From a virus (taxonomy: Duplodnaviria; Caudoviricetes): a DNA stretch of 54,754 nucleotides. Below the pieces are notes generated by a model. The model did no database searches, was not told the origin of the DNA, and saw nothing but the letters and a program-made list of their open reading frames with translations. Below are positions 5,300-54,754 of this stretch, piece after piece (the first letter of the stretch is position 1; every line of letters begins with the position of its first letter). The stretch lies in the IMG/VR virus record IMGVR_UViG_3300024279_000003, positions 1 through 54,754 of that record; one strand, written 5' to 3'. The position numbers and the translations under genes were made by a program.

Positions 5300-5911
5300 A
5301 TGTATTTAGTTTTCGATACTGAAACTTCGGATTTGCCTGATTTCAAGGCACCAAATCCTGGAATGTCTAGAGCTAGAGTATTGCAGATGGGTGCTTTACT
5401 TCTAACTCCAGAATTTGATGAAGTAGCATCATTCTCATCTCTGATAAAGATTCCACCTGAAGTTGAGATAGCTCCTGGAGCATATAATGCACATCATATA
5501 TCATTTGAGATGTGTCAGCAGTATGGCATACCTATCGAAGCAGCTTTAGCTATCTTTGATGAGTTCGCTAAACTTGCTGATTATGTTGTGGCTCACAATC
5601 TAAAGTTTGATACATATCTACTATCAACTGAGATGATTGTATCTGGAAGAGCACTTTATAATATTTCTCATGGTTCCTCTGGAATCTGCACTATGCTAGC
5701 TGCTACAAATGCTTGTGGTCTTAAGCAAAAGACTGACCCAAATAAGAAAAAATGGCCTAAGCTTGAAGAAGCTGCAAAGATACTTCTAGGTATTGAGATG
5801 ACAAATGCTCATGATGCATTATATGACGTTAGAATTACAGGTCAAGTGCTTCGTTGGCTACTTTTAAATAATCATATCTCATTACCTGCTAAAGTAGCTT
5901 CTCAAGGTTGA
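5300..5911 (+). CDS. DEDDh 3'-5' exonuclease (DnaQ-like)
   Basis: VFDTETS (ExoI), VAHNLKFD (ExoII), CTM, AHDALYDV (ExoIII). Confidence 0.9.
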   Translation: MYLVFDTETSDLPDFKAPNPGMSRARVLQMGALLLTPEFDEVASFSSLIKIPPEVEIAPGAYNAHHISFEMCQQYGIPIEAALAIFDEFAKLADYVVAHNLKFDTYLLSTEMIVSGRALYNISHGSSGICTMLAATNACGLKQKTDPNKKKWPKLEEAAKILLGIEMTNAHDALYDVRITGQVLRWLLLNNHISLPAKVASQG

Positions 5912-5917
5912 GATAGT

Positions 5918-5934
5918 TTGGCATACTTCCTGCT
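5918..5934 (+). promoter_or_regulatory. sigma54 (-24/-12) promoter upstream of the major capsid gene
   Basis: TTGGCATACTTCCTGCT, with GG-N10-GC spacing, in an intergenic gap. Confidence 0.75.
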
Positions 5935-18527: not shown

Positions 18528-20075
18528 ATGCCCGACTACACAGACCTATATAATGCTAGTGTTCCTGTTCTTCCTGTAGGAAGAGGATATGACCCACAGT
18601 CATTTCTTCCGGGAAACTTTACACCTCCTACTAATGCTGGTAGTCCTGTTCAACCAACTGGTTCTCCATCAAGTAGGAATAATAGTGCATGGATGTTTGG
18701 GCCTGGAGGCCAACAGATATCAGATATAACTTCAGGTAACTTTAATGCTTGGGATGCTATTGACCCATCTGGAGTTTTATCAGGATTGCTTGGTGGAGGA
18801 AGTAAAGGACCACCTCCATTTCAACCTTATATTAGTAATGGACAAGTTCAATCATTATCTCCCGGTGCAGGAGGACAATATCAGAATCCTACTTCTGTAA
18901 CTAATGTTCCAGGAGCACAGCAACTTTGGTCTAATAATGATATACAGCAGGCCAATCAGATTAAGGTTCTTCAGCAGCTTCTACCTTATTATCTTGATAC
19001 AATAAATAAGGGAAATCTTCAAACTGCACAAGGAAATCTTGGTGTAGCTCAAGCTACTTCTCCCGGATATGCACAGTTAATGACCCAGATTTTTAATCAA
19101 TATGGGCCACAACTTAATGCTATTGGGAATGCAATTAATAGACAGAATGCTTTAGCACAGGCTAATACAGAATCTCAAGTGATGGCAGGTCCTGGGCAAA
19201 ACCTAGTTAAGCAAGCCTATGACCTATCTCAAGTATTTGATAAACCTTACTATGATACTCGTGCTGCTACAGCAGGTAGACTTCAAGATTTACTTGGAAG
19301 TATCAATTTGAATGGTGGATTATCTGATACAGAGAGAAATGAAATTGCTCAGGGATTATCCAGAGAAGGATATGCTCGTGGAACAGCTAATGCTCCATCT
19401 GCCTCTGAAACTGTTGCTAACGCAATGCAATATGGTCAAGCGGGATACCAACGAAGGACACAACAACAATCCTTACTTGGTTCAGCAATTAGCACAGCAT
19501 CTTCATTTCTACCATCATCTAAATCTGGTGTTGATGTATTTCAAGTTGCTACTGGTAGACCTTCAATGCCAAATCAAGGTGCTGCTCAATTTGGTGGTGC
19601 ATCTCAAGGAGTTACTAATCAAGGTAATTCTACAGCAATGGGTATTTCTCAAGGATTACTTGGTGGAATGAATACAATCGGTCAGCAGAATATTGAACAG
19701 AATCTTGGTCAGCAGCAGATTAATCTACAGAAGAAAGATTGGGCTGATTATCTATCTCAAGTTATGGGTTCTGTTGGAAATCTTGCTGGTGGAGTTGCTG
19801 GTGCTGCTCTTTGTTGGATTGCTAGAGAGATTTATGGAGAGCAGAATCCTAAATGGAAGCTATTCAGAACTTGGTTAATAACTAAAGCACCGAAATGGTT
19901 CTTTAAATTCTACATTAAGTTTGGCCCAAGAATTGCTACCTTTATTTCCAATAAACCATTACTGAAAGCAGTAGTCAGAAAATGGATGGATAAACGTATA
20001 TGTCAGCTAAACGAACAGGATATGAAGGATTTCAACACAAGCTCGCTATTGAAGTCTTTGCAGATGATTCTATAG
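18528..20075 (+). CDS. Internal virion (ejection) protein with a C-terminal CFI-box-CTERM-like domain
   Basis: G/Q/N-rich body, glycine-rich hydrophobic end, then CWIAREIYG...FRTWL...FYIKFGPRIATFI. Confidence 0.7.
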   Translation: MPDYTDLYNASVPVLPVGRGYDPQSFLPGNFTPPTNAGSPVQPTGSPSSRNNSAWMFGPGGQQISDITSGNFNAWDAIDPSGVLSGLLGGGSKGPPPFQPYISNGQVQSLSPGAGGQYQNPTSVTNVPGAQQLWSNNDIQQANQIKVLQQLLPYYLDTINKGNLQTAQGNLGVAQATSPGYAQLMTQIFNQYGPQLNAIGNAINRQNALAQANTESQVMAGPGQNLVKQAYDLSQVFDKPYYDTRAATAGRLQDLLGSINLNGGLSDTERNEIAQGLSREGYARGTANAPSASETVANAMQYGQAGYQRRTQQQSLLGSAISTASSFLPSSKSGVDVFQVATGRPSMPNQGAAQFGGASQGVTNQGNSTAMGISQGLLGGMNTIGQQNIEQNLGQQQINLQKKDWADYLSQVMGSVGNLAGGVAGAALCWIAREIYGEQNPKWKLFRTWLITKAPKWFFKFYIKFGPRIATFISNKPLLKAVVRKWMDKRICQLNEQDMKDFNTSSLLKSLQMIL

Positions 20076-37065: not shown

Positions 37066-38090
37066 TCAGTCACTTCTCCATGTTTTAAGGGTTCATATGG
37101 TCTTTGGTCGAAGTTAGATAATAGAACAAAATTACCAACCTTCTCATCTAAAGCATGACACACATCATGGAATTTACATGAGAATAAATTGTGGCATAAT
37201 CCCTCTATCTTGCCATTCATTGCAGGTGGAGTTTCACGAAGAGCATACTCTTTAATTTCTTGCATCTTAACAGCAAGCATATCCTCAAATTCAATTTCTT
37301 GCTTTAAGGAGAAGAAGAACACTTCTGAAGAATCAAAGAGAGTTTCCGATTTCGATTTTAGAAATACACCGTCAATAGCGGCACCTATCTTCTGACCTCT
37401 AAGTTGTGATAAAGCTGAACCATCTCTTGCTGCTTCCATTCTAACTGCCCAAAGATATAGTTTAAGCTGTGGTGAACTCTTGAATCCCTTTAGAAATTTC
37501 TGAGCATCCCATGATGAAGTTGTCTTGTAATCTCTAACACAATAGCAACCGTTATTAATCTTTCCAACTCTATCTATTGTTCCCTCTATGTAGGATTCAT
37601 ACTCCTCTTGTATCTCCCAAGGAATAGAGAACTTAACTTCTACAACAGATTGCTCTCTTTTACCTTTGCCATCACATACAGCACATTGAATATTAGCATC
37701 ATCTTCTGCATGTATAACTCCTTCACCACCACATCTCCAGCAGTTAGCTGTGGGATTCTGTATTAGAGAGAATTCAGATTGCTTAGTTTGTAGATGCTGC
37801 CAATAATCGAAGCAAGTATTTATTAAATGATTCTCAGTTAAATGTTCCTTCTTAGGTCGAATTTTGAAATTAGCGCCGCGCCACACTTTTATAGCTGCCC
37901 TAACTGCTTCATCAAATAAACCACCAGACTCTTCCATTCTAGAGAGATATTTATGAACTGATGTTCCATAGATGGTATCATTCCAAGTGAATTTCTCTCT
38001 CCATCCTTGAATTACAATGGCATTATACTTCCATTCACAGGCTGATTCTTTTAATGCAGATGCATCTACTTTAACTATTGTTTTTGGCAT
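37062..38090 (-). CDS. PD-(D/E)XK nuclease, Cas4/RecB-like, with a DnaJ-type Zn-finger insert
   Basis: YGTSVHK, EVKF, GTIDRV, RDYKT, QLKLY, C-terminal C....C.F..VC; insert CWRCGGEG...CAVCDGKG. Confidence 0.85.
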   Translation of the reverse strand: MPKTIVKVDASALKESACEWKYNAIVIQGWREKFTWNDTIYGTSVHKYLSRMEESGGLFDEAVRAAIKVWRGANFKIRPKKEHLTENHLINTCFDYWQHLQTKQSEFSLIQNPTANCWRCGGEGVIHAEDDANIQCAVCDGKGKREQSVVEVKFSIPWEIQEEYESYIEGTIDRVGKINNGCYCVRDYKTTSSWDAQKFLKGFKSSPQLKLYLWAVRMEAARDGSALSQLRGQKIGAAIDGVFLKSKSETLFDSSEVFFFSLKQEIEFEDMLAVKMQEIKEYALRETPPAMNGKIEGLCHNLFSCKFHDVCHALDEKVGNFVLLSNFDQRPYEPLKHGEVTE

Positions 38091-38110
38091 AGCGTGTTAT
38101 GTGTTTACTG

Positions 38111-38362
38111 TCAGTCAAACTTCAAATCTATCCCCATTTGCGCTGCCATCTTTTCAGCCAAGCGTTTCTTAGCATCTTTAAGGGTATTCTCAATGGAGGA
38201 GACATTAGAACCTTTCGACCTATACGCAGATTTCTCTGGTTTAGGGGCAAGTTCAGGTCGTGTAACATTTAGAAGAGGCCCAAAATACTCATTAAGTTTC
38301 TTTTCATCCATTTCGGCCAATTCTTTCGCTGATTTGCCATTGATAGCTTGGAGTATAGTCAT
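38111..38362 (-). CDS. Hypothetical protein
   Basis: 83-aa ORF in an operon context. Confidence 0.6.
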   Translation of the reverse strand: MTILQAINGKSAKELAEMDEKKLNEYFGPLLNVTRPELAPKPEKSAYRSKGSNVSSIENTLKDAKKRLAEKMAAQMGIDLKFD

Positions 38363-38363
38363 C

Positions 38364-39005
38364 CTACTTCATCTTTGCATATTGTTCAGGAGTAAGCTTA
38401 ACACAGAATAGAGTGTCTGCTGTTGCTTTGAATACAATACATTTATCGTCGGCTATCATTGACTTAATGTATTCACCATCATCAGCAGTCAGATTAAGAT
38501 TGTTAAGTTTGAGTTGCTGGCCAACATCAGCTTTCTCAACGAAGGCATGTAGTGTTGCTTTCCAATCTTCAGGTTTCTTAGGCTCAGGCGTGGGTTCAGT
38601 TGATTTTGGAGGTGCTTCTACAGCTACATGCTCTTCATGAGAAGTTGCTCTAGCTACTAATGGTTTATCATCTTCACCCTGATTATATGAGATGACAATT
38701 CCACCATTGGTTCCTCTTGCTCTAGAGATATGAATAATCTCTCGAAATTCTTTGTAGACTCCATCAGGGTCAAGTTTATCTAGCAAATAGAGCATTGCTT
38801 GATTAATCTTGAGATAGAGTGTTACAGGAGCTATCTCTTGATAGTCGGCATACTTAATTAATCTTGGCTTTCTATCTCCTGATTCCCTTGCCAAAATCAT
38901 TTCATCCAAGATATGCTTTACTTCAAGAGCATGACGCTGCCTATAATAAGGCGCGTTAGCTCTTCGTGACCATGTAGATGGTCTATCCACTGTGTTCTGC
39001 GGCAT
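38364..39005 (-). CDS. Hypothetical protein
   Basis: 213-aa ORF in an operon context. Confidence 0.7.
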   Translation of the reverse strand: MPQNTVDRPSTWSRRANAPYYRQRHALEVKHILDEMILARESGDRKPRLIKYADYQEIAPVTLYLKINQAMLYLLDKLDPDGVYKEFREIIHISRARGTNGGIVISYNQGEDDKPLVARATSHEEHVAVEAPPKSTEPTPEPKKPEDWKATLHAFVEKADVGQQLKLNNLNLTADDGEYIKSMIADDKCIVFKATADTLFCVKLTPEQYAKMK

Positions 39006-39306
39006 AATCTGCTTTCTTAATTATAGCGTGACAATCTTCACCATCGAAGAATCTTACCATTTCATCAAATTGAGACACGGCATTTCCAAACTGTGAAGGC
39101 ACAAAGAGAATATCTCCTATCTCTACTTCATTCTTATGTCTGAACTTTGTTCCAATCTTTAGAACTTCACCTGGGATAAGTTCTAATGGAACTCTTTGTG
39201 AATCTGGAAGCACTAATCCAGAGAATGTTCCAGTTGGTTTTTTGTGTAGTCGAAGGATTACAACATCTTTCAGTAGCGTGTTTATTTTATTTAGTTCTAT
39301 TGACAT
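38983..39306 (-). CDS. groES: GroES/Cpn10-like co-chaperonin
   Basis: LKDVVILR...TFSGLVLPDS...GEVLKIG...EVEIGDILFV..FG matches the Cpn10 pattern. Confidence 0.75.
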   Translation of the reverse strand: MSIELNKINTLLKDVVILRLHKKPTGTFSGLVLPDSQRVPLELIPGEVLKIGTKFRHKNEVEIGDILFVPSQFGNAVSQFDEMVRFFDGEDCHAIIKKADYAAEHSG

Positions 39307-39615
39307 AAATTCTTCACTGTCATTTTACAATCTCGACTTAGGGAGGAAACAACAAGCACTAACCCTTTAACCAATTCGGCAATGATGATAATAGACAGTC
39401 TAACCTTAATTGCCTAGTCAGCATATTACTATTCAATTACCTGACTTAAGTCAACCTGAAGCTGCCCGCAACAGGATAATCAACAGAATGCTTGGCATAT
39501 ACGAAGCAGATACTCACAATATAGCATACATTCTGTAATGTAGAAGGGATTTCCTTTAATCCCTCCGAAAGAGTTAGCATACAATTTAAATCTCGCTAAC
39601 GGAGCTAAAAGAGGA

Positions 39616-40029
39616 CTAATGCTTAGGCATCAGCAAACCGATTGGGGAGGTATTTTGCTCTCTCTGAAGTTCAGCATACTTCTTTCGTTGCTCTTCTTCA
39701 GTCATACCAAGAGTCATACCCATAGATGGAGGAGCATCTGGAAGTGCTAGAATAGCTACTTCTAATTCAGCAGTTTTCTCACCAGCAAGATATCGTTTAA
39801 CAAGAGGTTGAACATCAGCATTAAGCCAGAAGTGAGGATTCTGTCCTTTCTTGCCTATTACTTTGTTTACATTCTCTTCAATGAGTTGAATCTTTGCTCT
39901 GACATTTGCATCATTGAATATGTAGGTTTTATGTGGAACTTCCTTCTGTTCTGGAGTTTTATCTCCACCAGTATCTTCAGCTTGAGCAGATTTATTGTTG
40001 GCTGCTTGTATTTCGGCTTTAGTTGGCAT
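39616..40029 (-). CDS. Hypothetical protein, first gene after a sigma54 promoter
   Basis: 137-aa ORF with an AACACGT leader. Confidence 0.7.
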   Translation of the reverse strand: MPTKAEIQAANNKSAQAEDTGGDKTPEQKEVPHKTYIFNDANVRAKIQLIEENVNKVIGKKGQNPHFWLNADVQPLVKRYLAGEKTAELEVAILALPDAPPSMGMTLGMTEEEQRKKYAELQREQNTSPIGLLMPKH

Positions 40030-40080
40030 ACGTGTTAATTATTTAGTATTAAGTTATTCACAGGCATTGACCTCTTATAT

Positions 40081-40097
40081 AGCAGGATTCGTGCCAA
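40081..40097 (-). promoter_or_regulatory. sigma54 promoter for the replication/recombination operon
   Basis: Minus strand TTGGCACGAATCCTGCT, intergenic. Confidence 0.8.
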
Positions 40098-40127
40098 AAT
40101 AGATTATATAAAGTTATATCATCTATC

Positions 40128-40988
40128 TCATGATTGCAATACCTTGTATCTTCTAACAAGCTGTTGAAGTCTCCTTACTCCCAAAGATAAATCCATGTTA
40201 TCAAGTGTCCCAAGTTTATTTCTAGACCTCAGATATTCTAGATATGAATGGCCATCCTGCATTGCTTGTATGATTGGCTGAATATCACATTTCCTCTCCT
40301 TTAATCCTTTAATGACAATCTCGAATGTGGAAATTCTAGCATACAAATCTGTTCTAAATGAACCATCTAGAATCATTGCTCTCAAATCTCTATGAGTTGC
40401 AAATACAAATCTACAGGATATATCTCTCTCTTTTGTATCACCAAGAGGAAGAATCTTCTTTTCTTGAATAGCTCTCAGAAGCTTAGCTTGTAGAGTTAAG
40501 GGCAATTCACCAATTTCATCAAGGAAGAGAATACCGTCTCTTGCGGCTACACATAACCCTGCCTTATCCTGTTCGGCGCCCGTAAATGAACCTTTCTTGT
40601 GTCCGAATAGCAATGAATCTATTAGAGTATCAGGTAATCCTGCACAATTAATTGGGACAAAGTTTCCTTCTCTTGGACCTAGAAGAGCATGTGCTATCAA
40701 TTCTTTTCCAGAACCAGTTGGACCTGTAATTAGAACTTCGTCATCTACTTTGGCAAGCTTCCTAACATCATCCTTCATTGCTATTGATGCAGAATCTACA
40801 GTAACAAACTTATGAAGCCAGAACTCTGTAGAGTTAAGCTTATCTACAATCTTGCCATCTCGAATTTCTATTTGGAGATTATACTTCTCTATCTGTGCTA
40901 TTGCAACATCAGGTAAATCATTGTCTAGATATCCCTGAATTAGATGAAGTATGTTTGGTGGTGCTGTAGGATGATTGCCGTTGCTCAT
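40128..40988 (-). CDS. sigma54-dependent enhancer-binding AAA+ activator lacking receiver and HTH domains
   Basis: GPTGSGKE, INCAGL, SLLFGHKKGSFTGA (GAFTGA loop), LFLDEIGEL, QAKLLRAIQE, FATHRDL, FRTDLYARI; the protein ends just after the GVRRL sensor-II helix. Confidence 0.93.
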   Translation of the reverse strand: MSNGNHPTAPPNILHLIQGYLDNDLPDVAIAQIEKYNLQIEIRDGKIVDKLNSTEFWLHKFVTVDSASIAMKDDVRKLAKVDDEVLITGPTGSGKELIAHALLGPREGNFVPINCAGLPDTLIDSLLFGHKKGSFTGAEQDKAGLCVAARDGILFLDEIGELPLTLQAKLLRAIQEKKILPLGDTKERDISCRFVFATHRDLRAMILDGSFRTDLYARISTFEIVIKGLKERKCDIQPIIQAMQDGHSYLEYLRSRNKLGTLDNMDLSLGVRRLQQLVRRYKVLQS

Positions 40989-41293
40989 GGTATTAATCCT
41001 GCTTCTTTCATCATTTGCTTGAGTTTTTGTTGTTTCTTGACTTGTTCACCATTAAACTGTTCCCAAGATTCGCGGAACCATAATCGCTTTGAGCCATCTG
41101 TCAATTCTGGTAAAATAATATTTGTTCCAGGATATATGGTATCCTTATCAGCTTCAAGAACATAATTCTCTTTTAGCCATGATACAGAAGGTAATCCATC
41201 TCCCTCTATTATAGTTGTTTGAAGCACAGAGAGTTGAACATAATGTTCTTGACCCTGTAAAAGAGCATCAATATAATGTTGGAGTGGAATCAT
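40985..41293 (-). CDS. Hypothetical protein translationally coupled to the activator gene
   Basis: 102 aa; ATGA overlap at 40985-40988. Confidence 0.65.
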   Translation of the reverse strand: MIPLQHYIDALLQGQEHYVQLSVLQTTIIEGDGLPSVSWLKENYVLEADKDTIYPGTNIILPELTDGSKRLWFRESWEQFNGEQVKKQQKLKQMMKEAGLIP

Positions 41294-41406
41294 TTAGAGA
41301 ATGGTGGCTTTTTGAATTTACCCCAACGATATCCATCATAAAATCCCATAGCATAAGCACATGCCATAAGAAGAATTACAGGTGGTATTATTAGTAGAGT
41401 TATCAT
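41290..41406 (-). CDS. Small membrane peptide, 38 aa (MITLLIIPPVILLMACAYAMG...)
   Basis: Fills the gap between the helicase stop and the next ATG, with ATGA coupling. Confidence 0.5.
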   Translation of the reverse strand: MITLLIIPPVILLMACAYAMGFYDGYRWGKFKKPPFSK

Positions 41407-43647
41407 TTAATCCTCATCTTCTTCATCTTCTCCAGTCCATGTATCTGCTGTCTCATCTGAACCATTCTGAGGTTCTGATTCTCCAGTTTCTTCCTTACCT
41501 TTAATTAGCTTCGCTTCGATTTCTTCTTCTGACATTCCTTTTCTACCAATGATGAGGTCTTCCCACGATTCTTTGTTACGGACAACTTTAGAGAGACAGT
41601 GCAATTTAACTCCAACAACTCTAGCTTGTCTTTCTTCAACTGTTCCTCTATAAAATTCCATAGTTTGATTCGTATCCGAGAGTGATGTAAGCCTAGGGCA
41701 TCTTCCAACTCCTTGAACCAATTCGATTGCGGACCATGTAGGCGTAACAACAACTCTTCTTGGCCGTGTAGGGATATTCGGTATATCTTCTTCATATGCG
41801 TATCCTGATTCTCTATGTCTGACTTTCTCTTTTGTTAGGTCATCCGTATGATGTAGTGAAAGTCCTACTCCACCAGCACGGAAAGTATACATGCAATATA
41901 GAGCTTTACCACTCTGGAATCTATCAATCTCTTTCTGTCGCTCTTTAAAGCTCTGATTACCTAACCTATATTCTTTAGGCCAAGCAGCAACTTCAGCTTC
42001 CTCTACTTCATCTAAATCTAAATCCTCGAATGTTAAACCAGTTGCAGCCATTTGCTCAAGGAACTCAGGTGAATTGAGGATTGACCGCTTGATTTTCTGT
42101 TTCTTTGTTGCCACAGGTGCTCCACCCCAGATAAGAGCAATATCATCGCGTTTAACTCCGTAATCCTTGATGAGAATTTCAACAACCTTACATATTGTAA
42201 GCTTAAATCTAACAGCAGCGACAGAGGCAAATCCTTCTTGGACTCCATGATACATATCTCTAGCAATCTTATGCACTCTATCGTAATTTGTTTCTGCTGC
42301 CTTGAGAAATACTTGAAGTTGGGCGAGGATATTGAAAGCAGCTTGTGAACTCGACATAGATTCATCTCCCTCAAGCTTAGCCTTCTCTTTTTGGAATTCT
42401 TCCCATGCATTTTCATATTCAGTTCTACCTCTATCTGTCTCAAAGTTCATTATCTTGATATGATTATATGGCTTGAATTGTGTCTTAATACCTTTGACAC
42501 GATGTATATATTCAGCCATATAAGCCATGAGTCTATTCATAGCTCCGGGAGAATAATTCTCTGGCTTAGTTTCTAATCTACCGTAATCACTAGCAATATT
42601 CTTAGCAAAATCATTCCAATGTTCATTACACATTGGTGCATCTTTATTGAGTCCGAAAGTATATGGTATCTTAGATGCAACTACAAAGCATTTGGCCTCA
42701 GACACTCTAACAAACGGTGTTGCAGATTCAAATAATTGATAGGTGCTATCTGATTCTATATCGTTGTATGCCTGTGCTATAGATGATTGTTGGGACCAAT
42801 GATTCTTTAATGCCTGACACTCATCCCATATAATAGCTATAGGGAATACGTGTGGCCGCCAAACCCATTTACACGATTCTACACCATCCTCAACTGTTAT
42901 CTCTTCCTTAACGAATCTTTTACCGAATTGAGAACGAAGTTGGTCAATATTGATTACTAGAACTTCATTCTCAGTTAATCCGAAATACTTCTTTAGGACA
43001 CGCTGAGTTTGTTCAACAACTGAAGCTTTAGTAACATATACATATGGCCAAGGTGTAAGTGTTCTTCCCTCATGAAATTTAGAATGATATAGTCTAGCTA
43101 GCAAAGCACCAACTATAAATGTTTTACCAGAACCAGTTGCAGCAATAAGCAAATCTGCTCTATGATTATGCTTTCTAATATTCTCAAGCAATACACAGCA
43201 AGCTCTCTTTTGAAACCAATACAGGAAACTTTTGTCTAGAGGACACGGTTCTAAATTCCATTTTCGGACTTCCTCATCTTGTTTCGGGGGAAAATCTCCT
43301 AATTCGGAAGCTGGAACTGGAAGTAAATCTAATGCTTTAACTACCTCATTGAAATCTGGAGTATCAGGAAGAATTAATGGTGGATTATGCTGTAACCAAA
43401 TATAGGTTTCTGATTCTATTCGCCTATCATCTAGAAAATCCTTAACATCTTGATATGTTAGTTCTGTATTGAGGTGAGATTGAGTGCAACCATCTATTAG
43501 ATACCATTCATAGAGATTATATAAATCTTGGAATGTCTTTAAGTTTCCCCAAGACCAAGCACCCTTGACTTTATTCTCCAGATATCTTATCTGGTCACGA
43601 AGTCGCTTGTCTTGCTTCTCTTGTGGACTTAGTTGTGGTTTTGCCAT
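41407..43647 (-). CDS. Superfamily 2 helicase (SNF2/strawberry-notch-like)
   Basis: ATGSGKT, WDECQALKN, SATPF, AGGVGLSLH, WSAIELVQGVGRCPR. Confidence 0.88.
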   Translation of the reverse strand: MAKPQLSPQEKQDKRLRDQIRYLENKVKGAWSWGNLKTFQDLYNLYEWYLIDGCTQSHLNTELTYQDVKDFLDDRRIESETYIWLQHNPPLILPDTPDFNEVVKALDLLPVPASELGDFPPKQDEEVRKWNLEPCPLDKSFLYWFQKRACCVLLENIRKHNHRADLLIAATGSGKTFIVGALLARLYHSKFHEGRTLTPWPYVYVTKASVVEQTQRVLKKYFGLTENEVLVINIDQLRSQFGKRFVKEEITVEDGVESCKWVWRPHVFPIAIIWDECQALKNHWSQQSSIAQAYNDIESDSTYQLFESATPFVRVSEAKCFVVASKIPYTFGLNKDAPMCNEHWNDFAKNIASDYGRLETKPENYSPGAMNRLMAYMAEYIHRVKGIKTQFKPYNHIKIMNFETDRGRTEYENAWEEFQKEKAKLEGDESMSSSQAAFNILAQLQVFLKAAETNYDRVHKIARDMYHGVQEGFASVAAVRFKLTICKVVEILIKDYGVKRDDIALIWGGAPVATKKQKIKRSILNSPEFLEQMAATGLTFEDLDLDEVEEAEVAAWPKEYRLGNQSFKERQKEIDRFQSGKALYCMYTFRAGGVGLSLHHTDDLTKEKVRHRESGYAYEEDIPNIPTRPRRVVVTPTWSAIELVQGVGRCPRLTSLSDTNQTMEFYRGTVEERQARVVGVKLHCLSKVVRNKESWEDLIIGRKGMSEEEIEAKLIKGKEETGESEPQNGSDETADTWTGEDEEDED

Positions 43648-44788
43648 TTATTTCCCTTTCTATTTTAGATTGATAACTAAGTAAAGTAGCGAATCTTTCT
43701 TTAGTCCAGAAGTTATCTTCTTCTAGTGCACAATCTACAGCATGCCCTAGTGCTTGTTGTATTACAATTAGGTCTTTATTTGGTATGTTCAGTCGCATAT
43801 TGTTTTAACCTTCGTTTATTTGCTCTATTTGGTTTTCATGATTTAAATGGTATTAGTTTATGGTGAATCATTGCTTTATATCTATTTAAATCTGATTGAA
43901 GAACTAAAATTTTCTCATTATCTACTCTGCATCTTTCAACATACTCTTCTACATCTTCTGGTCTGATTGCAAGAACAGTAGTAAAATGGTCACAATCAGG
44001 TTCATCAGGAATACGAAGATACATTCCATTTTTTTCTGTTTTACCATCCCACTCTACAATTTTATGTAGAGTTCCTTCATATGTCATTAGTGCGATTTTC
44101 ATTTAATCTCCCATATCTAATTTCGCTGCAACTTCAAGTTTATCTACAATCTCCTGTCGCTTAGATTTCGCTATTCTAGAAGCTAATCCGCGGAGCACTT
44201 CTCTATCTTCTATACCATACTTCTTAGCAAGAGAACGCATTAACAATTCTGTATTCTCTGCTTGTAGATTCCATTCCTTTCTTTGCTGCATTTGTTTGGC
44301 TTTGTCTAATTGCATCTTTAGATGATATGTTTTCCATTCTTTGATATACCAAACATGAGGATATTCGAACTTTGAATTATCCTCCATTGATTCAAATTGA
44401 ACATGGCAAAGAGTTTCATCCTTATCTATCTCAGAGATAAGAAGTGCATCTTCCATATCTACTGGACCCCATTCTCTAGTTCTAATTACATACCAGAGAT
44501 ACTTTGAAAGTGGACGAGTGATTTTCTTTTCAATCATAATTTTTTACCATAGTCATAGAAGTCTATATACCAATCTCCGATACAGAAATTTTTAGGTGGA
44601 TTAGGATATGATGCAATAATCATGTTGAACATATTCTGCACTTCATCGATAGTTGATATGCTTTCTACCACCTTCTTCTGTTTAAAGAATGATAGTAAAG
44701 CAGCATTAGTTGCTCCGCGAGGATTGTCTCCTATTCCGATAAACACTAAGGCAGGTGCTTTAGAGTTTCTGAATCTGAGGTAAATCAT
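43595..44788 (-). CDS. Four small hypothetical ORFs (43595..43798, 43836..44102, 44103..44537, 44534..44788)
   Basis: Tightly packed, same strand, downstream of the promoter at 44804-44820. Confidence 0.65.
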
Positions 44789-44803
44789 TGAGTTCCCTCT
44801 GAC

Positions 44804-44820
44804 AGCAAGAATCGTGCCAA
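44804..44820 (-). promoter_or_regulatory. sigma54 promoter for the helicase/activator operon
   Basis: Minus strand TTGGCACGATTCTTGCT, a full consensus match. Confidence 0.85.
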
Positions 44821-44867
44821 CTTAATGTTATACTAGGTTATATATGGTTCTCAAATTTGCAATATGG

Positions 44868-44915
44868 AAAAAAGAAAACTCCCTGGTAAGAATCTTTCAC
44901 CTACCAGAGAGTTTC
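44868..44915 (-). terminator. Intrinsic terminator
   Basis: Minus strand GAAACTCTCTGGTAG...TTACCAGGGAGTTTT followed by CTTTTTT; G-U pairs fit the minus strand. Confidence 0.8.
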
Positions 44916-44962
44916 TTGGATTAGTTCTATTGGAGAACCTTGAAAGAACCAATAGAGACTAA

Positions 44963-45520
44963 TTAAGCTGTAGCATTCTCAGTCTCTTCATCCGTCTTGC
45001 GACGCTTAGAAGAGATAGCAATCTGCAACCTCTTGATTTCGTCTGCGTATTCCTTGAACATCTTCTGGAAATCTGGAGATTCCATATCCAGAGCTGTGAT
45101 TTGATTCGTGAGTTCTTCGATTTCTTCCTTGAGCTTGGGAATAGATTCTCCACGAGCAGAGAATTCTTTTGCAAGAGTATCGAATACCTCAAGCAATTTC
45201 TGGTTATCAACCTTACCATCTTCTCCCTTAGCCTGTGATTCAGCTTCCTCCATCCATCCCTGTGCTAATCCCTTAACAAAGGCATGAAGTTTAGATGCTG
45301 CAACATCAGCACCCATCCAACCTACGAGAGTATCAAGAGTTTCTTTTGTGGTTTTCTCTGGAGCAAGATAAGGCCAACCTTTTGATTTGCCCTTCATTAC
45401 TTCAGTATCCACAAACTTCAAAGCAACTTCATTGCGTGTTACTTCGATAGAAGGAATCTTTTCTCGTTTCTTTGGAGTTGCTCCTGGATTTCCAGCGTGT
45501 TGTGTTTGAGTTTCTGCCAT
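44963..45520 (-). CDS. Hypothetical protein in a monocistronic unit
   Basis: 185 aa, bracketed by its own promoter and terminator. Confidence 0.8.
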   Translation of the reverse strand: MAETQTQHAGNPGATPKKREKIPSIEVTRNEVALKFVDTEVMKGKSKGWPYLAPEKTTKETLDTLVGWMGADVAASKLHAFVKGLAQGWMEEAESQAKGEDGKVDNQKLLEVFDTLAKEFSARGESIPKLKEEIEELTNQITALDMESPDFQKMFKEYADEIKRLQIAISSKRRKTDEETENATA

Positions 45521-45626
45521 ATACTTACTTTGCTTTCTTTTGTTTGGTTTGTTTGTTTACTTACTTCTGAACCCTAACTCTACATTGAATTACGAGTTCA
45601 AAATTCTTTAGTTCAGTTGGGGATAT

Positions 45627-45643
45627 AGCATTTACTGTGCCAA
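45627..45643 (-). promoter_or_regulatory. sigma54 promoter for 44963..45520
   Basis: Minus strand TTGGCACAGTAAATGCT, overlapping the end of the upstream ORF. Confidence 0.7.
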
Positions 45644-48600
45644 CTCATTAGGAAACTGTATTTGGAATCCCTTCTCAAAGTTGAGAACTTCTCTAACTGA
45701 TGATAGGTCAAAGGTAGCATGATTTGCATTACAGATAAGAGCTATCTCTCTTATAGCATCTTGCTTATGCTCAGCATCCACTGTTAGTGTAAATTCTTGA
45801 CCGTCTGTTATAGCACAACATTCAACTTGGAATTTCATTTGTTAGTCATTTGAGGTTCTAAAGTTTCTTGGAACATAATCACCATCACCTTGAACTAAAA
45901 CACATGCAGGAATAGATGGAGCCGTTTCTATTGTTAACACTTCACACCAATCTGATGGGTCTGCTCCATCTAAAGCTACCAATTTAAATTCTGGTGGAAA
46001 AGTTTTAAGTTTTTCTATTGCTTCGGCTATATTCATTTTATGAAGGAGATTGCAAATGTATCTTCAGATTCAAGGTCTACAACAGTGTTCATTACAGATG
46101 TGTTATCCGTAATTTGCATTGTCCAATTCTCTGGGTCAATTCTGATTTCTGTCTTATGCTTGAGTGTTTTCTCAAGTAGAAGTGTGCCTTCAGAATCGTG
46201 TATTAGGAGTTTCATTATTTATCCTTCAAGTATTTTCGAATTTCAGATTGAATAGAGTTAAAGTATTCTGCCGATTCTCTTCTACAGAACTCTATTGCTC
46301 TATTTGCTATTGCTGTTTCTCCTCTTCTGAATTCTGAGGTTTTAATTCCAGCACACTTAAGCCTGTATCCAACTTGCGATACGGATTTGCCAGTGGCTTT
46401 AGCAATAGTTTTCCAAGGAAAGCCAAAGAACTTTGCCATTAGAAGAACTTGAATATCCTGTCTATCAGCCTTCTCGTTTATGAATGGTGCTACTGTTGAT
46501 TTGTCATTTTGCATGTTTAATCATCTTTTTGTAATCTTCCCAGTAATCTGGGAAAGCTTTCTTAATTCTCTCGAAGTTTGTTTCGTCAGCATAAATACAA
46601 GTTTCAGCTAAAGATTTAATAAAGCTTCCACCATATTTACGCATTGCATTGATTACTTTAACATCTTCATCATGTTCTTCTGGTGTTCTCATCTCTGTGC
46701 CTCTATCATTTCTAATGCTGCTTGGATAACATCAAGATTTGTCCCGCAGCATGGACAATACTTGAGCTTTCGCATTGTTGCGATTGTGAACTTCGATAGT
46801 GTAGACTGTTTCGCGGGAACAAATTTAGGTTTGTGGAACAACTTCATTGCTTGTGACCAGTATCTCCATGTAGTTGAACTAGTCAACTTGATTGGAATCT
46901 CTTTTGGATGAAATACATTAGCAAATGCATCTCTCACTATATTTGTTCTAGCATCTCCTCTATTCTTCATTCGATAGATTGCATCTAGAACTGCTGCTTG
47001 TTGCTCTTTAGTTACTTTTCTGTGGCCCATCTGATTGTTTCCTTTCATCATTGAGTTTTAGGTTTTGTATTCTGCAAGCTCTTAGCCTGCAAATTCCATC
47101 TACATTAATCCAAACTGTCTTACTATCATGACTAATTTGGATTTCAACTATCTTTGGGCTAGTAATATCTAGCATTGTGAGATTTTCAACTTTCATCTTT
47201 CTTATCCTCCAATGATTTTATCATGCAGTTGCCAAGTGCCTCCGCCATTCTTTTTGCATCATCCGCCAATTGTTGTGCTGCATCACTAGCCGACTTAACA
47301 ATGTGCGGGGCCAACAATCTCATGATTTCAGTAGATATCTTCTCATCTAGAGATATCCTGAATTCTTTAGCACTTCCGTGTTTTGCTTTAAGGTATGCAC
47401 TAGCTTGCCAAGGTGCATCATCTTTCCACGATGATTCTCTATTGATTGTTAGGGATTGAATTGTTAGCTTCTCTAACTCCTGTGGTGTCTCTATCGTTTC
47501 ACTCATTTGTTTGGTTCTTTCTTTTGTTTTTGTCTGTTTTCCTTTAATGCTATATCGGCATTAGGGGAAATTCCGAAAATTGGGTCATCATATTTGACTG
47601 TTACACATGCAAGTCTAAGATTCTCTACTCTTCCTAGAGATGCACTTTTAATTTCTTCGAGATTGTAGCAGAATGCATCATCGTAGATATTCATATGTAG
47701 ATATACCAATTGAATCCGAACTTAGTCCTGCAAAGCATATCTCCAGCCCTAATCCATGTTACATCGTAGTTTATGCATGTGTAATGTCTACAATCTTGTT
47801 CAGACCATGTAGATGGAAATATGAGATAGGCTCTGATTAGGTTGTGTATAGGATAGATTTTATTGTCTTTCTTTCCAATTGTGTATTGATTCATAAAGTT
47901 GCATCATTTCGGAGAATGATAATCTGATAGAACGATGATTGCAGAATTCCTCAATAGAGATTTCCCAATGGTCCTCTGGATGGTCATCATCGTCAATGTT
48001 TGCTTTGTTTAGCAGGTTAATTGATACATTGCCGTTCATAAAGTTATCTTGTATTTTCCAGGTTTATCCATGGTGAATTAATAGATGTAAATGGATATTT
48101 GAGCCTCATTTTATGAAATGCTTGTTTTTCGTTTTTTGCTTTGCATTCATCCCAAACTGTTTTACCGTTAAGGAAATGAATAGTGAATATGTAGAGTTTC
48201 ATATGAATGGTGAAGGTTAAGCTCGCCTTCGGCTCGTAGGTTAATCCCTTTCATCTTCTAATAGGTTTGCTTCATCTAATTCTGGTAGTTTACGTCTAAT
48301 CTCTGCTAATTCTTCAGGTTTAATTCCGTATGCAGATTTGAGTATTCGCAATTCAACAATCATTCCTTCAGCATCCCATTTGAGATGTGTCCATAATTCA
48401 TTCTTGTCATCTTGAGATATATCAGCAGGAAGAGATTGTATGTAATCATTCATGAATTTGAATGATACTTCACGCATAACAGCATGACGCTTGAAGTTAC
48501 TCCATCCAAACTCTTTAGACTCTTTCCAAAAATGGTTTATAGATTCCTGACACACAATCAAGTGTTTCAGTATCTCGCGGGCATACTGTTCAATATCAGC

Positions 48601-49450
48601 CATAGATTAATCATCTCCTAGAAGCTTATCAAGTTCATGTGATGCAGCTTGAGATTTATTTAAATCAACAGTTGTTGATAGTTCAATTTTATTTCCATGA
48701 CGTTCATCATACATTATTACATTGTATAGGTCCGATGCTGAAAATATGATTGGAGTGTCAGTTCGGAGTAAAAAATCAAATGGAATTATGGTTGCTGTAA
48801 CTGTAGATTTGAAGTCAATTTTTTCCTTCTCGTCTAAATGAAATATTCCTATTCCATGATGATATTCTGCTGAATTTTTAAATCTTTTAAATAGAACTTC
48901 ACAGATAATAAATCGTTTACGCATATTTAGTGAGAATTTGAATGTTTACAATGTCATAGCCTGGTCCAGTTGGAGTATAAATTGTTAAAGCATATCCGAC
49001 TTCTTCCCGTTCATCAAATTCTTTTGGCCGATACCATTTATAGTTTGAAGGTTCATAATACAACAGTTCAGCTCTGTATTCGGATGCTGTTGCATATACA
49101 ACACGGCAGATATGAGCTTTTGCTCTATCTGGATTATTATACCATTTTTGAATGAGTTCTTGTTTGTTTGTTGTTGTCATTTAGAGTTTATGTGCTTTTA
49201 ATGGTTTATGAGTGCTTGATGCAAAAACTTTTTTAGGTTTTTCAAACAGTGTAGAGTTTAATAGATGTCTACCCTCTAATGCTCTTCGATTTTTAATATA
49301 AAGTCTATATAATCGACTATAACAATTAGAATGATTGGAGGCATAATTACGTTTAAATTTTGCTTGAAGCTTATTCGCCTCTTTTTCAGTATCACATTCG
49401 ATGATATAGCGTGATGGACCAATTTCTAATATAAGTCGATATATTCTCAT
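45632..49450 (-). CDS. Cluster of about 15 small, tightly packed early-type hypothetical ORFs
   Basis: Minus-strand ORF-track genes plus two short ORFs near 47860-48200; frequent start/stop overlaps. Confidence 0.65.
46215..46514 (-). CDS. Putative HTH DNA-binding protein
   Basis: GFPWKTIAKATGKSVSQVGYRL HTH pattern. Confidence 0.6.
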   Translation of the reverse strand: MQNDKSTVAPFINEKADRQDIQVLLMAKFFGFPWKTIAKATGKSVSQVGYRLKCAGIKTSEFRRGETAIANRAIEFCRRESAEYFNSIQSEIRKYLKDK

Positions 49451-49554
49451 ATAATTCTATTATAACTAGAGTATAATGGTTTACTCAATTTAAATCGGTT
49501 TTAAGTGGGTTTTGATTTATGTTATATGAAGGCTGTCTACCACCAAATTCTGCT

Positions 49555-49571
49555 AGCATAAAATATGCCAA
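49555..49571 (-). promoter_or_regulatory. sigma54 promoter for the small-ORF cluster
   Basis: Minus strand TTGGCATATTTTATGCT. Confidence 0.65.
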
Positions 49572-49749
49572 AATAAGCGATTTTAAAGTATGGCATAACT
49601 TTGCATGGTTGAGGTAAATATAACCACAAGTATAACACCTTTCTCAAGCTTGAGAATATTGAGTATACTCTATTGCAAGACTGAGAAGATGGTTAAATTT
49701 GTATGGATTTATGTATGTTAGTGGATGTTTTAATTGAGTTTAATGGAAA

Positions 49750-49960
49750 GATATATATTGAGGATATAACTGTATATAGGTGTCGTTATATATATAATGA
49801 TATATAACCCCTAAACCCTCCACTATCTCTCTATATATAATCTATATATAACTCTTAGGCTGAAACAATCAGAATTTACAAGTAGCGAAAAAGCAAGCAA
49901 TGTTATATATGGTTATATACGTTATATATCGATATACTGAGTTATATCATATTATATAAA
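49750..49960. repeat. Cluster of TATAAC/GTTATA repeats in an AT-rich non-coding region (candidate origin or operator array)
   Basis: TATAAC at ~49765, 49803 and 49847; GTTATA at ~49785, 49902, 49912, 49921 and 49941. Confidence 0.6.
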
Positions 49961-50248
49961 GTTCCCGTAATTCTCTTCCAATCGCTAGCTCTATTCATTA
50001 AGATGAGCTTTTCGTTGTTTAACGCTGGAGATATAACCGGGATGGAGATTTCCATTTAAACCAAACGTGAATGCTAACTCAAACTTGGTTCACTTTACCT
50101 ACCCATCACCTAAGTATTTCATAGGCTGATATGGTTCTGCAATTAATGAATAACCTACTTTAGCTTAAAGAAGCTGTTTTGATTATAGCAGATGTTCTCA
50201 TAGCATTTATTAATATGCTAGACTGTTAGCACAGCCCTAACTCTCCTT

Positions 50249-50851
50249 CTAACTGGTCTGAGTGGTGGAAGCTTCTTTAGCTAACTTCTCCTGCTGTCCA
50301 ATCTCTCCAAGGATATATTGCTTGGTAAGATTGAGTTGCATGATTTGAGCTTGGATTGATTTCTCCCGGTCGAAGTTGGGAGTATTCTTCGCAAACAAGT
50401 CCCGCAAACGCTTTTCAGCAGCGTTAATCATTAAGTCAACTCCAAGTAGTTGCTCCTTAAGGACCAGCTTGTTCTCACCGATGATAGTGACTCGCTCCAC
50501 AATCTCAGCTTGTCGTGCAATGTGGAAGAACGCCCTGCGTGAACTGATGACGTTCAAACTGTTCACTTGCTTGAGTTGCTCTGTCAGATAGTTGTCCACG
50601 GCATTCTCAACCTTGTTGAATATGTCTCTGGGCAACTTCTCAGACTTGCCATAGACCGCTGCGAAGTGCATCCTGAAATCGCCACAAACATGTGTTATCA
50701 GCTTGTTACGATTCAGAGTTAGTCTTTCGCGTGTAGTGCCTTTGGCCGATTTGGTTGCTTGACGTTTAACGCTCAGGTCGAAGTCATAATCTTCCTCACC
50801 TGTAGGACTAATTGCTAAGTCCGTTGCATTTTGAGTGATAGCTTTGCTCAT
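50249..50851 (-). CDS. Hypothetical protein, first leftward gene
   Basis: 200 aa; visibly more GC-rich than its neighbours. Confidence 0.8.
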   Translation of the reverse strand: MSKAITQNATDLAISPTGEEDYDFDLSVKRQATKSAKGTTRERLTLNRNKLITHVCGDFRMHFAAVYGKSEKLPRDIFNKVENAVDNYLTEQLKQVNSLNVISSRRAFFHIARQAEIVERVTIIGENKLVLKEQLLGVDLMINAAEKRLRDLFAKNTPNFDREKSIQAQIMQLNLTKQYILGEIGQQEKLAKEASTTQTS

Positions 50852-50884
50852 ATGTATTTGACTGTTATTTGGTTTACTAGCTAG

Positions 50885-51070
50885 TGCTAGGAATCACATA
50901 ATCCCCAGCTTGGACAACTCAGGACTTATCCCAAGTATCATAGGGGCCTGAGCCGTCGCCGATATATATCGGGAGCGTAGCCGAAGTGGAGACCAGTGTT
51001 AGAAGGATACAATCTATGTCTGGTAGTTTTGCTTTGCCCAAGCTAGGGACTATGCTAACAGTCTAGCATA
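50885..51070 (-). ncRNA. Structured leader RNA of unknown family
   Basis: A 20-bp helix (50897-50916 with 51035-51054) has three mismatches that are all G-U pairs on the minus strand; internal stems are present. Confidence 0.6.
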
Positions 51071-51287
51071 CTTTTGTGATGGTGTTACCTCACTTTCAGG
51101 TATATCGTTTCATTCCCTGCTTGACTAATGAGCCAGCGGATTTACTGTTACCCTATGACCTTGTTTTGTATACCGCCCTACCCGGACTTAGCGGTTAGTG
51201 TTCAGAGAAACACATTAATTCCACTGTTAGAGGCGAAAGTGCCTCAGCAGGACCAGCAGGAATGCTGCTCAACTGCAAGAGTAATTA

Positions 51288-51304
51288 AGCAATCCCTATG
51301 CCAA
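51288..51304 (-). promoter_or_regulatory. sigma54 promoter, leftward arm
   Basis: Minus strand TTGGCATAGGGATTGCT. Confidence 0.8.
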
Positions 51305-51597
51305 CTATTAGTAGTGCCTCACAGTTTGAGGTTATACCACATATGGTATACCTTCTACTGTGATGTATCCGTTCTATACACCAAAAAGCAACATCATGGC
51401 TAGGAATCTACAGTAAAGTGACGTTGCTTGACGTATCATTAGTTAATAGTCGAGTAGGGGGGTAGTGACCAGATAAAAAGTCGTCAGCCTTCGGCTGGTA
51501 TACTCATAAAATTTCCCCCTAAATATCACTACCCAAATCATTCCCAATATATACCATATCTAACTCTATATAACCCTCTATCGCATCTTTGAGTAGT

Positions 51598-51614
51598 TTG
51601 GCACGATAGTTGCT
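51598..51614 (+). promoter_or_regulatory. sigma54 promoter, rightward (packaging/head) arm
   Basis: TTGGCACGATAGTTGCT, a full consensus match. Confidence 0.85.
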
Positions 51615-51633
51615 TCCTTCTCAAGTCTGAGAT

Positions 51634-51813
51634 ATGTCGAAAGCATTTCTAGATATTAATAGTGAAGGTAGGATACGAATCAAGCGTTCTCCTGGAATGA
51701 TTATATCTAAGGAATGGCTTGAGAAAATAGAAGAAATACGTGAAGATATAGAGAAAACATATGTGCTACCTCAGACTACATCGACTAATTCGAATAGGGA
51801 TAAGAAGGTTTAA
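51634..51813 (+). CDS. Small hypothetical protein, 59 aa (MSKAFLDINSEGRIRIKR...)
   Basis: ATG 51634 to TAA 51811-51813, just downstream of the promoter; below the ORF-track cut-off. Confidence 0.5.
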   Translation: MSKAFLDINSEGRIRIKRSPGMIISKEWLEKIEEIREDIEKTYVLPQTTSTNSNRDKKV

Positions 51814-51957
51814 TCTTCCCTATCAGGTAATCTGGAATCAGATTTACCGGAATGCTTTGCCCCTCATAACGAGGAATAAGATTCCTTGGCATCTTCGAGA
51901 TGAGGAACTTAGTATATATTTGCAAAACAATGGTGTCTTTAAGAATGCATAGATAAC

Positions 51958-52398: not shown

Positions 52399-52524
52399 TT
52401 TCACTCATAACCAATATACCTTGAAGTAGTTAAAGCTAAACACAATGACTGCTAATTGTTCGTCCGAGTCAAATCCCCCAAATGGTATATTCGCATACAT
52501 CCTGTCTGATGTTAGTGGCTAGTT

Positions 52525-54231: not shown

Positions 54232-54240
54232 AGAGGAAAT

Positions 54241-54411: not shown

Positions 54412-54415
54412 TCTT

Positions 54416-54619: not shown

Positions 54620-54754
54620 ATTTATGAATATATCTGCACCTACACCAGTTAATCCTTCTAAACCTTACGAATATGGTTCAATCTCTAATTGTCCTGAAGA
54701 AGTTCAGGAGTATTGTGAAAAGATACACGATTCACTAACCATTGAACAATTAAG

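Follow-up and report, generated by a model that had tools for sequence, protein, structure and literature searches.

The 54,754-base window analysed here, the whole of IMG/VR virus record IMGVR_UViG_3300024279_000003 (one complete record with a GC content of ~38%), carries on its minus strand a gene for a 286-amino-acid (286-aa) activator of the bacterial enhancer-binding protein (bEBP) family, together with seven sigma54-type promoter sites spread over the genome. We consider it probable that this phage activator drives most of the phage operons through the host RNA polymerase carrying sigma54. The integrity of the gene and the enrichment, orientation and clade-wide conservation of the sites are computed here. 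A first-pass annotation had put forward the idea that the phage supplies its own activator to redirect the host polymerase with sigma54, and the idea finds computational support in what follows.

40128..40988, minus strand: activator gene, encoding a 286-aa minimal bEBP (assigned by PF00158, family alignment and AlphaFold2 model)

The product of this gene matches the Pfam family Sigma54_activat (PF00158) over residues 67-224 with an E value of 2.9e-54 (183.7 bits against a cut-off of 20.2; 185.2 bits in the genome-level profile search of its open reading frame, ORF). It also matches PHROG 7998, which is annotated as 'unknown function'. The conservation of its motifs was assessed in an alignment of 40 members, consisting of the phage protein and 39 homologues from among more than 100 short relatives (263-349 aa), many of which are encoded on 50-56-kb contigs. 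Five positions of the Walker A motif (G89-E96) are invariant, namely G89, G92, G94, K95 and E96, as are D157 and E158 of Walker B. The sigma54-contact loop L1 reads GSFTGA (133-138), with G133 and A138 invariant and F135, T136 and G137 present in at least 90% of the members. The arginine-finger stretch FRTDLYAR (211-218) is invariant at F211, R212, D214, L215 and R218, and the sensor II arginine R272 is likewise invariant, the protein ending 14 residues after it. The AlphaFold2 model (pLDDT 93.6, pTM 0.83) finds the AAA+ cores of FleQ, FlrC, NtrC1, PspF, ZraR and LuxO in Foldseek, with E values from 5e-23 to 1e-17. Judged by its motifs and fold, the 40128-40988 product is an intact sigma54-activator AAA+ protein, which agrees with the annotation's description of its Walker A and B motifs, GSFTGA loop and arginine finger.

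What surrounds the AAA+ domain is reduced. Pfam returns no helix-turn-helix (HTH) family in the activator, and no receiver, GAF, PAS, V4R or other known regulatory domain. In the alignment with FleQ, residues 270-282 fall opposite its GNVRELANLVERLA stretch, and because the alignment reaches this far, the conserved C-terminal stretch is to be read as sensor II and not as an HTH. The C-terminal LGVRRLQQLVRRYKV, considered as a degenerate Fis-type HTH, was ruled out in that role, since it aligns with the sensor II motif GNVRELxN of FleQ and of the family. Having no C-terminal HTH, the protein would be a bEBP-family activator that does not bind enhancers. The N-terminal extension of ~66 aa matches no Pfam family, is poorly conserved and is predicted by AlphaFold2 to fold as helix-helix-hairpin-helix. 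A winged HTH was also considered for this extension; the secondary structure is compatible with one, yet the segment is acidic by eye and poorly conserved.

A search of both strands with the pattern TTGGCAYR-N5-TGCT (TTGGCAYRNNNNNTGCT) returned exactly seven sites, the same seven that the first-pass annotation had picked out. Their predicted transcription start sites (TSSs) were placed ~12 nt 3' of the GC of each site; scores refer to the position weight matrix (PWM) introduced below the list, and an eighth, weaker match from the PWM scan is appended.

5918..5934, plus strand: sigma54-type promoter, 133 nt 5' of the major capsid candidate; predicted TSS ~5945
40081..40097, minus strand: sigma54-type promoter, 31 nt past the activator stop, with the best PWM score (25.1); predicted TSS ~40070
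44804..44820, minus strand: sigma54-type promoter of the operon whose last genes are the SNF2-type helicase, p102 and the activator; predicted TSS ~44793
45627..45643, minus strand: sigma54-type promoter, 107 nt 5' of a 185-aa coiled-coil gene (44963-45520); predicted TSS ~45616
49555..49571, minus strand: sigma54-type promoter heading ~17 small leftward ORFs (49450 to 45632); predicted TSS ~49544
51288..51304, minus strand: sigma54-type promoter in the divergent control region, 437 nt 5' of a 200-aa gene (50249-50851); predicted TSS ~51277
51598..51614, plus strand: sigma54-type promoter heading the rightward operon; predicted TSS ~51625
19921..19937, plus strand: possible eighth, weaker site, TGGCCC-N5-TTGCT, PWM score 16.2, with GG-N10-GC kept

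All seven sites keep the GG-N10-GC spacing. The annotation had guessed a chance expectation well below one, and 100 dinucleotide shuffles indeed gave a mean of 0.03 matches, with none reaching seven. The sites also stand out when scored with a PWM built from 80 sites of 13 other genomes, from which the window (G000) was excluded: they make up seven of the eight best matches in the window, with scores of 15.8-25.1 (the lowest belonging to site 49555), and the next score is 11.6. At a score of at least 16 there are 7 matches in the window and 0-1 in each of 10 approximate shuffles. The consensus of the 80 sites in the relatives is TTGGCACG-N4-TTGCT, followed by an A/T-rich stretch. Site 19921 is the sole previously unreported match above the score gap; it lies inside a 515-aa gene, 241 nt 5' of gene 20163-21194, and may be an internal promoter for that gene and for the giant gene that ends the virion module.

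The placement of the sites is as the annotation had it, in or at the edge of intergenic gaps and facing the local coding strand. Each of the seven is co-oriented with the next gene on its own strand, and by crude ORF calls five lie in intergenic gaps, which amount to only about 7% of the genome. Site 45627 shares 12 nt with the 3' end of an ORF, and site 51288 falls inside a 91-aa ORF on the opposite strand, for which 13 relatives show no homologue and which is probably a spurious call. Downstream of site 40081 stands a block comprising p137, a GroES-like protein, p213, an exonuclease, DNA polymerase and primase, and the operon after site 51598 runs through small ORFs, p146 and the large terminase, then past the circular junction to the portal. 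The early, replication, packaging and capsid labels given to these operons in the annotation hold in part: terminase, DNA polymerase, primase and exonuclease are assigned by homology, the capsid label comes from a fold match of low confidence, and 'early' reflects gene size and position only.

The same combination of gene and sites recurs in related phages. A search with the activator found three close IMG/VR relatives (51-74% identity), which, like the other relatives, were scanned with TGGCAY-N6-TGCW, the reversed pattern serving as control; each of the three has seven sites and zero control matches. A profile search yielded 54 further activator loci, 49 of which were searched for sites (those omitted were L042, L050, L054 and L088, on 4.4-5.8-kb contigs, and L039). 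Ten near-complete non-provirus records of 45-56 kb hold 4-9 sites each, 59 in total against one control match, and records that are flagged as provirus or have only distant bEBP matches mostly hold 0-2. The three close relatives and these ten were analysed in full, giving 14 genomes with the window, whose core genes are common to all 13. Across the 14 there are 87 sites (80 in the relatives, seven in the window), of which 81 point in the same direction as the next gene of 100 aa or longer and 55 are intergenic, intergenic DNA being 5-9% of the sequence according to a crude ORF caller. The GC content of these genomes ranges from 30 to 55%, which suggests that their hosts are probably many.

Positions are conserved in spite of this range of GC content. 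A site lies 108-157 nt 5' of the capsid orthologue in all 13 genomes that have one (G050, with no BLAST-detectable orthologue, is outside this count), and 12 of 14 have a site before the terS-like/TerL block. In 10 of 13 genomes a same-strand site follows the activator stop by 31-704 nt, and a site stands before the p185 orthologue or its operon in G001, G002, G003, G006 and G016. Several genomes share the order of sigma54 site, small genes, SNF2 helicase, activator, sigma54 site, and recombination/replication genes. A TCAATTTGC motif ~10-20 nt 3' of the -12 element is common to the distant relatives G003 and G006, at the sites before the p185 and p213 orthologues, and may be a leader or operator element.

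An independent sample was taken by capsid similarity, comprising 36 of 79 loci (contigs of at least 40 kb, not previously analysed). A PF00158 gene with an open frame of 230-379 aa is present in every one of the 36, and the sites in these genomes total 192, the reversed-pattern control giving 11. The co-occurrence of activator and promoters that the annotation had offered as a check is thus seen in 49 of 49 relatives (13 analysed in full and 36 selected by capsid), two incomplete records having only 1-3 sites. On this comparative evidence the clade, which includes at least 50 genomes of ~43-56 kb, has both the activator and multiple -24/-12 sites among its core features.

In the mechanism that we propose, the phage would make a minimal sigma54 activator, a bEBP-type AAA+ ring ATPase with neither a DNA-binding nor a sensor domain, and host RNA polymerase with host sigma54 would sit as closed complexes on seven, possibly eight, -24/-12 promoters of the phage. 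Having no DNA-binding domain, the activator would engage these closed complexes from solution and not from an enhancer; its GSFTGA loop would contact sigma54, and ATP hydrolysis would open the promoters. The operons driven in this way would be the small-ORF block and those for helicase/activator, recombination/replication, packaging and capsid/tail. As the activator is the last gene of a sigma54-headed operon and the next sigma54 promoter comes directly after it, the order of elements suggests a positive-feedback cascade, both feed-forward and self-reinforcing. Candidates for the first round of transcription are a sigma70-like element, TTGAGA-N17-TATAAC, overlapping promoter 44804, a host bEBP, or leak. 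Binding of the sites by the sigma54 holoenzyme, action from solution, timing and the first-round trigger are the parts of this scheme that we infer. Sigma54 promoters are silent without an activator, and such control would therefore be tight, self-contained and orthogonal.

Several observations weigh against this proposal. The activator operon is itself headed by a sigma54 site, which creates an ignition problem for a purely sigma54-driven programme. The contact loop is GSFTGA and not GAFTGA, position 134 being unconserved with A as the family consensus. At sites 44804 and 51598 the predicted TSS lies only ~5-9 nt 5' of the called start codons. None of the 36 capsid-selected records is a relative without the activator, and since every relative has it, the co-occurrence of gene and sites offers no absence contrast. 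Seven of the 36 have at most two canonical sites; these records (G064-G069 and G071, corresponding to L147, L150, L154, L156, L159, L160 and L163) form one capsid subclade. The capsid promoter is canonical in one of the seven; in the other six it reads TGGCAT-N5-TAGCA or TGGCAC-N5-TAGCA (TGGCATATCGTTAGCA), as it does in three shorter contigs that belong to this subclade. A search of the seven with TGGCAY-N6-AGCW gave 1-5 sites per genome and one control match overall. This AGCW variant departs from the textbook -12 TGC; the subclade retains the GG-N10-GC frame, with a single -12 base changed. Finally, the presence of rpoN in the host is assumed. The capsid alignment includes one related contig from a metagenome-assembled genome labelled Alphaproteobacteria, in which no sigma54 DNA-binding domain was found and the motif is not enriched (41 against 34); that assembly comes with no completeness figure, and phage contigs are not reliably binned. 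A protein atlas search for a host returned generic bEBP clusters only.

An activator that cannot choose its promoters should switch on the host sigma54 regulon too, as the isolated AAA+ domain DctD250 does, for without a DNA-binding domain it would not separate phage from host promoters. This leads to another possibility, in which host enhancer-binding proteins fire the phage promoters, presumably the situation in phage YuA, and the phage protein is an auxiliary takeover gene that mainly reprogrammes or boosts the host sigma54 regulon (nitrogen, motility, envelope stress). The example of phage YuA, with sigma54-dependent promoters and no PF00158 gene, points the same way, as does the need of the activator operon for another source in its first round of transcription. 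We nevertheless regard this possibility as unlikely. The activator is a core gene in 49 of 49 related genomes and keeps its place between two sigma54 sites; judging from how many sites there are and where they lie, its main target is phage transcription. No shared enhancer-like element for a host bEBP was seen by eye upstream of the sites in eight other genomes, among them G003. The lack of such an element fits an activator without a DNA-binding domain, and we return to phage-driven activation as the preferred reading.

The window's own subclade (G000-G002) does carry motifs next to its promoters, of two kinds.

5900..5913, no strand assigned: palindrome TCTCAAGGTTGAGA, abutting the capsid promoter, with its centre 13.5 nt 5' of the GG
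49618..50037, no strand assigned: ~11 [AG]TATAAC repeats in both orientations, within the 798-nt gap 49451-50248

Further copies of the palindrome lie at 45673-45686, 49642-49655 and 51619-51632, and the general form TCTCAW-NN-WTGAGA, with at most one mismatch, occurs 10-13 times in each of G000-G002 against 0-4 times in shuffles. Relative to the GG, the palindrome centre falls at -13.5, ~-37.5 (the commonest offset), -60.5 or ~-80, or else at +22 to +25, on the predicted start; the -13.5 offset is that of three orthologous capsid promoters. In G003, a relative with 30% GC, the palindrome shows no enrichment. As for the second motif, ATATAAC is the most intergenic-enriched 7-mer of the window, with 14 of its 17 copies in the ~8% that is intergenic. 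Pairs of [AG]TATAAC stand just 5' of the -24 element at sites 40081, 44804, 49555, 51288 and 51598, and the cluster at 49618-50037, which includes three tandem copies with a period of ~10 bp, looks like an iteron-type array or origin, or a multi-operator region. Both motifs lie nearer to the promoter than the 80-150-bp enhancer distance. Their restriction to G000-G002, together with the absence of a shared upstream element, suggests that they are subclade-specific regulator sites and not a general enhancer; in the window's subclade they are probably bound by further phage regulators, which would control the timing.

At sites 44804 and 40081 the two motifs combine into something else. Directly 5' of each of these sites lies a sigma70-like -35/-10 pair (ATGAGA or TTGAGA, then TATAAT or TATAAC, across a 17-nt spacer), its -35 part coming from the right half of the palindrome, or from a half-site, and its -10 part from the promoter-proximal repeat, TATAAC or TATAAT. 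Such a pair could supply the first transcripts of the activator operon. More broadly, most phage transcription might start at unrecognised host primary-sigma promoters, with the sigma54 sites forming a late or conditional layer, or holding closed complexes that block or insulate until the activator appears; a sigma54 holoenzyme can occupy promoters without firing. The predicted start of the sigma70-like pair would in fact hit the -24 element, and scans for consensus promoters are low-powered when the host is not identified. We consider this alternative quite unlikely, given what those scans returned. In the region 38000-54754 the sigma70-type consensus has 48 matches against 57.1 expected, and neither sigma70-type nor Bacteroidetes-type (-33/-7) patterns are enriched in the intergenic DNA of four genomes. 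The TTGAGA-N17-TATAAY-type pair occurs at two of the seven sites, is missing from the other five and was not seen by eye in the more distant genomes inspected. By these sequence comparisons the sigma54 motif is the sole promoter-like motif common to the whole clade.

A stronger form of the preferred reading would dispense with primary-sigma promoters in the clade altogether. Every unit, including the earliest, would then be transcribed from a sigma54 promoter, infection would be strictly rpoN-dependent, a host activator or leak would ignite the programme, the phage activator would amplify it, and subclade operators (the palindrome and the iteron-like TATAAC repeats) would set the order. We hold this version to be doubtful, though worth stating.

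The reader of the motif might also be something other than the sigma54 polymerase, and here two further genes enter the argument.

6067-7365, plus strand: major capsid candidate, 432 aa, the best-conserved protein of the clade, with a weak fold match
21197-27265, plus strand: giant protein, 2022 aa, at the end of the virion module, with a homologue in 13 of 13 relatives (811-2449 aa, 21-57% identity)

The 16-17-nt motif could be read by some DNA-binding protein of the phage or by a phage polymerase that escaped recognition, the AAA+ protein then having a different client. There is room for such a protein in that the conserved 2022-aa product and many others have no family assignment, and in that the capsid fold resembles those of N4-like phages, a group known for its giant virion RNA polymerase. 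The best Foldseek matches of the capsid candidate are all HK97-type capsids, those of N4-like phages first (E 7.6e-7, TM score ~0.3); its AlphaFold model is poor, with a mean pLDDT of 57.1, and in view of these two values the capsid label is provisional. A search of phage records gave no match to the capsid candidate. For the giant protein there is no meaningful Pfam or PHROG match, and neither family searches nor the alignment of its 14 orthologues gave any sign of a virion RNA polymerase: the alignment has 25 conserved columns, mostly proline or glycine, and no conserved acidic motif of the catalytic kind. The annotation had inferred that the phage encodes no RNA polymerase or sigma factor, and in accordance with this, family searches of the window found neither a sigma54 nor a sigma70-family gene, and they found no RNA polymerase of the T7 type, the last being a weak blank, as the T7-type control was positive in no control genome. 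The motif itself fits the sigma54 consensus in sequence and in its exact GG-N10-GC spacing, and it is found together with a protein that has an intact sigma54-contact loop. We therefore judge a different reader to be very improbable.

How does this arrangement compare with known systems? One close likeness is to sigma54 activators cut down to the AAA+ core. FleT of Rhodobacter (Cereibacter) sphaeroides is, according to the available text of a 2020 review, the only known bEBP without both regulatory and DNA-binding domains (PMC7175178), and DctD250, the AAA+ domain of DctD alone, is described in the accessible part of its source as activating diverse sigma54 promoters in Salmonella and E. coli with no need of an enhancer (PMC3844500). 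The phage activator is likened to FleT by description and not by sequence: it has no DNA-binding domain and no known regulatory domain, yet possesses a folded N-terminal extension of ~66 aa. It differs from both proteins in this extension, in being virus-encoded and in having a genome-wide promoter set on the same replicon. FlgR and CtcC work without an enhancer and, like the phage protein, are natural activators with no C-terminal HTH; they retain a receiver domain, with phosphorylation as their control, whereas the phage activator has no receiver. In the review table, as far as available, FlgR (Helicobacter) and CtcC (Chlamydia) are placed in group 5, the bEBPs without a DNA-binding domain (PMC7175178).

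Among phages, Pseudomonas phage YuA is a close case. Its transcription initiation is said to rely on host sigma70 and sigma54 (PMC10914365, citing Ceyssens 2008), with promoters mostly sigma70-like or phage-specific in the portion of that source available (PMC10914365). YuA (and M6) resemble the present clade, so far as these accounts go, as tailed phages without an RNA polymerase of their own that use host sigma54 for part of their transcription. The YuA record contains no PF00158 match and no TGGCAY-N6-TGCW site, whereas the present clade encodes the activator and has canonical sites before nearly every operon. Htm (Gp204) of Mosigvirus AV110 has a bEBP-like structure and is proposed to act on sigma54 RNA polymerase (bioRxiv 10.64898/2026.10.06.757011). 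In the available part of that preprint Htm has no GAFTGA loop and an altered Walker B, whereas the phage activator here keeps every bEBP motif, and no phage sigma54 promoter set is proposed there (bioRxiv 10.64898/2026.10.06.757011). The late transcription of T4 (gp55/gp33/gp45) offers a functional analogy only: a phage activator that is not a sequence-specific DNA binder puts the host core polymerase on late promoters, as the accessible text describes it (PMC2988020). T4 relies on a sigma-like factor of its own and a sliding clamp, and the present clade would use a host sigma factor and an AAA+ remodeller.

The combination of a viral enhancer-independent activator with genome-wide sigma54 promoters across a phage clade appears to be undescribed, as far as we found, its parts being well known. 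The literature searched, which did not extend to subscription journals and supplementary files, contains no phage-encoded bEBP with phage sigma54 promoters. This agrees with the first-pass annotation, which knew of no characterised phage of the type; of the nearest cases, YuA has no PF00158 gene and Htm no GAFTGA loop. Against phage records, megablast of 39000-45000 found nothing, and tblastn of the activator found only bacterial-type bEBPs in mislabelled or provirus records.

Phages take over host transcription in three main ways, through RNA polymerases of their own, sigma factors of their own, or small proteins that modify the sigma70 holoenzyme. If the preferred reading is true, the present clade would add a fourth strategy, in which the phage supplies only the ATPase 'ignition key' for the host sigma54 polymerase and places sigma54 promoters before nearly all of its operons. 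The host range of this widespread uncultured phage clade would then depend on rpoN, which would also offer a path to resistance, and the 286-aa enhancer-free activator with its promoters would be a compact part for synthetic biology.

The remaining features of the record provide the setting for these elements. The terminal repeat 1-127 / 54628-54754 is an exact 127-base overlap; because it falls within an ORF, the assembly is taken to be a circle of 54,627 unique bases, the repeat not marking physical ends. Genes are arranged in two arms, a rightward one from ~51.1 kb over the circular junction to 27.3 kb and a leftward one from 50.9 kb to 27.2 kb.

52525-54231, plus strand: large terminase (TerL), by homology, with ~31% identity to Akkermansia phage terminases
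33597-35168 and 30463-31593, minus strand: family-A DNA polymerase, split in two genes ~2 kb apart, by homology
5300-5911, plus strand: DnaQ-like exonuclease, by homology, in the packaging/capsid arm just 5' of the capsid promoter

Homology also places a primase/helicase, a Sak4-like protein, a PD-(D/E)XK-type exonuclease and the SNF2-type helicase in the leftward arm, and the GroES-like protein is likewise assigned by homology. Most virion proteins have no Pfam or PHROG match. A 102-aa ORF, p102 (40985-41293, minus strand), overlaps the activator start codon by 4 nt and looks translationally coupled to it; it matches no family, and its homologues are found only in G001 and G002, the subclade with the palindrome and TATAAC repeats. 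The late region encodes a stand-alone LuxR/GerE-type HTH protein (10642-10965, plus strand) and a stand-alone response-regulator receiver domain (11379-11858, plus strand), with no link to the activator seen. The receiver gene and its neighbours have no homologue in the 13 relatives, the HTH ORF lying outside the BLAST set.

The window contains no tRNA genes, and no Rfam family reaches the gathering score in it. Between the capsid promoter and its gene, the leader (5935-6066 in the window) shares with the orthologous leaders of 12 relatives recurring GCTTCTA-like and GGGCA-like motifs and hairpins, across GC contents of 30-55%. This 108-157-nt leader matches no Rfam family and may be a conserved RNA element of the 5' untranslated region (UTR). 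A non-coding RNA candidate has been noted in the major-head 5' UTR of YuA, in the available text of PMC10914365. As for translation, a Shine-Dalgarno core is found within -18 to -4 in only 15-23% of genes of at least 80 aa, and AACACG(C/T) precedes several start codons, which may hint at the translation-initiation mode of the host.

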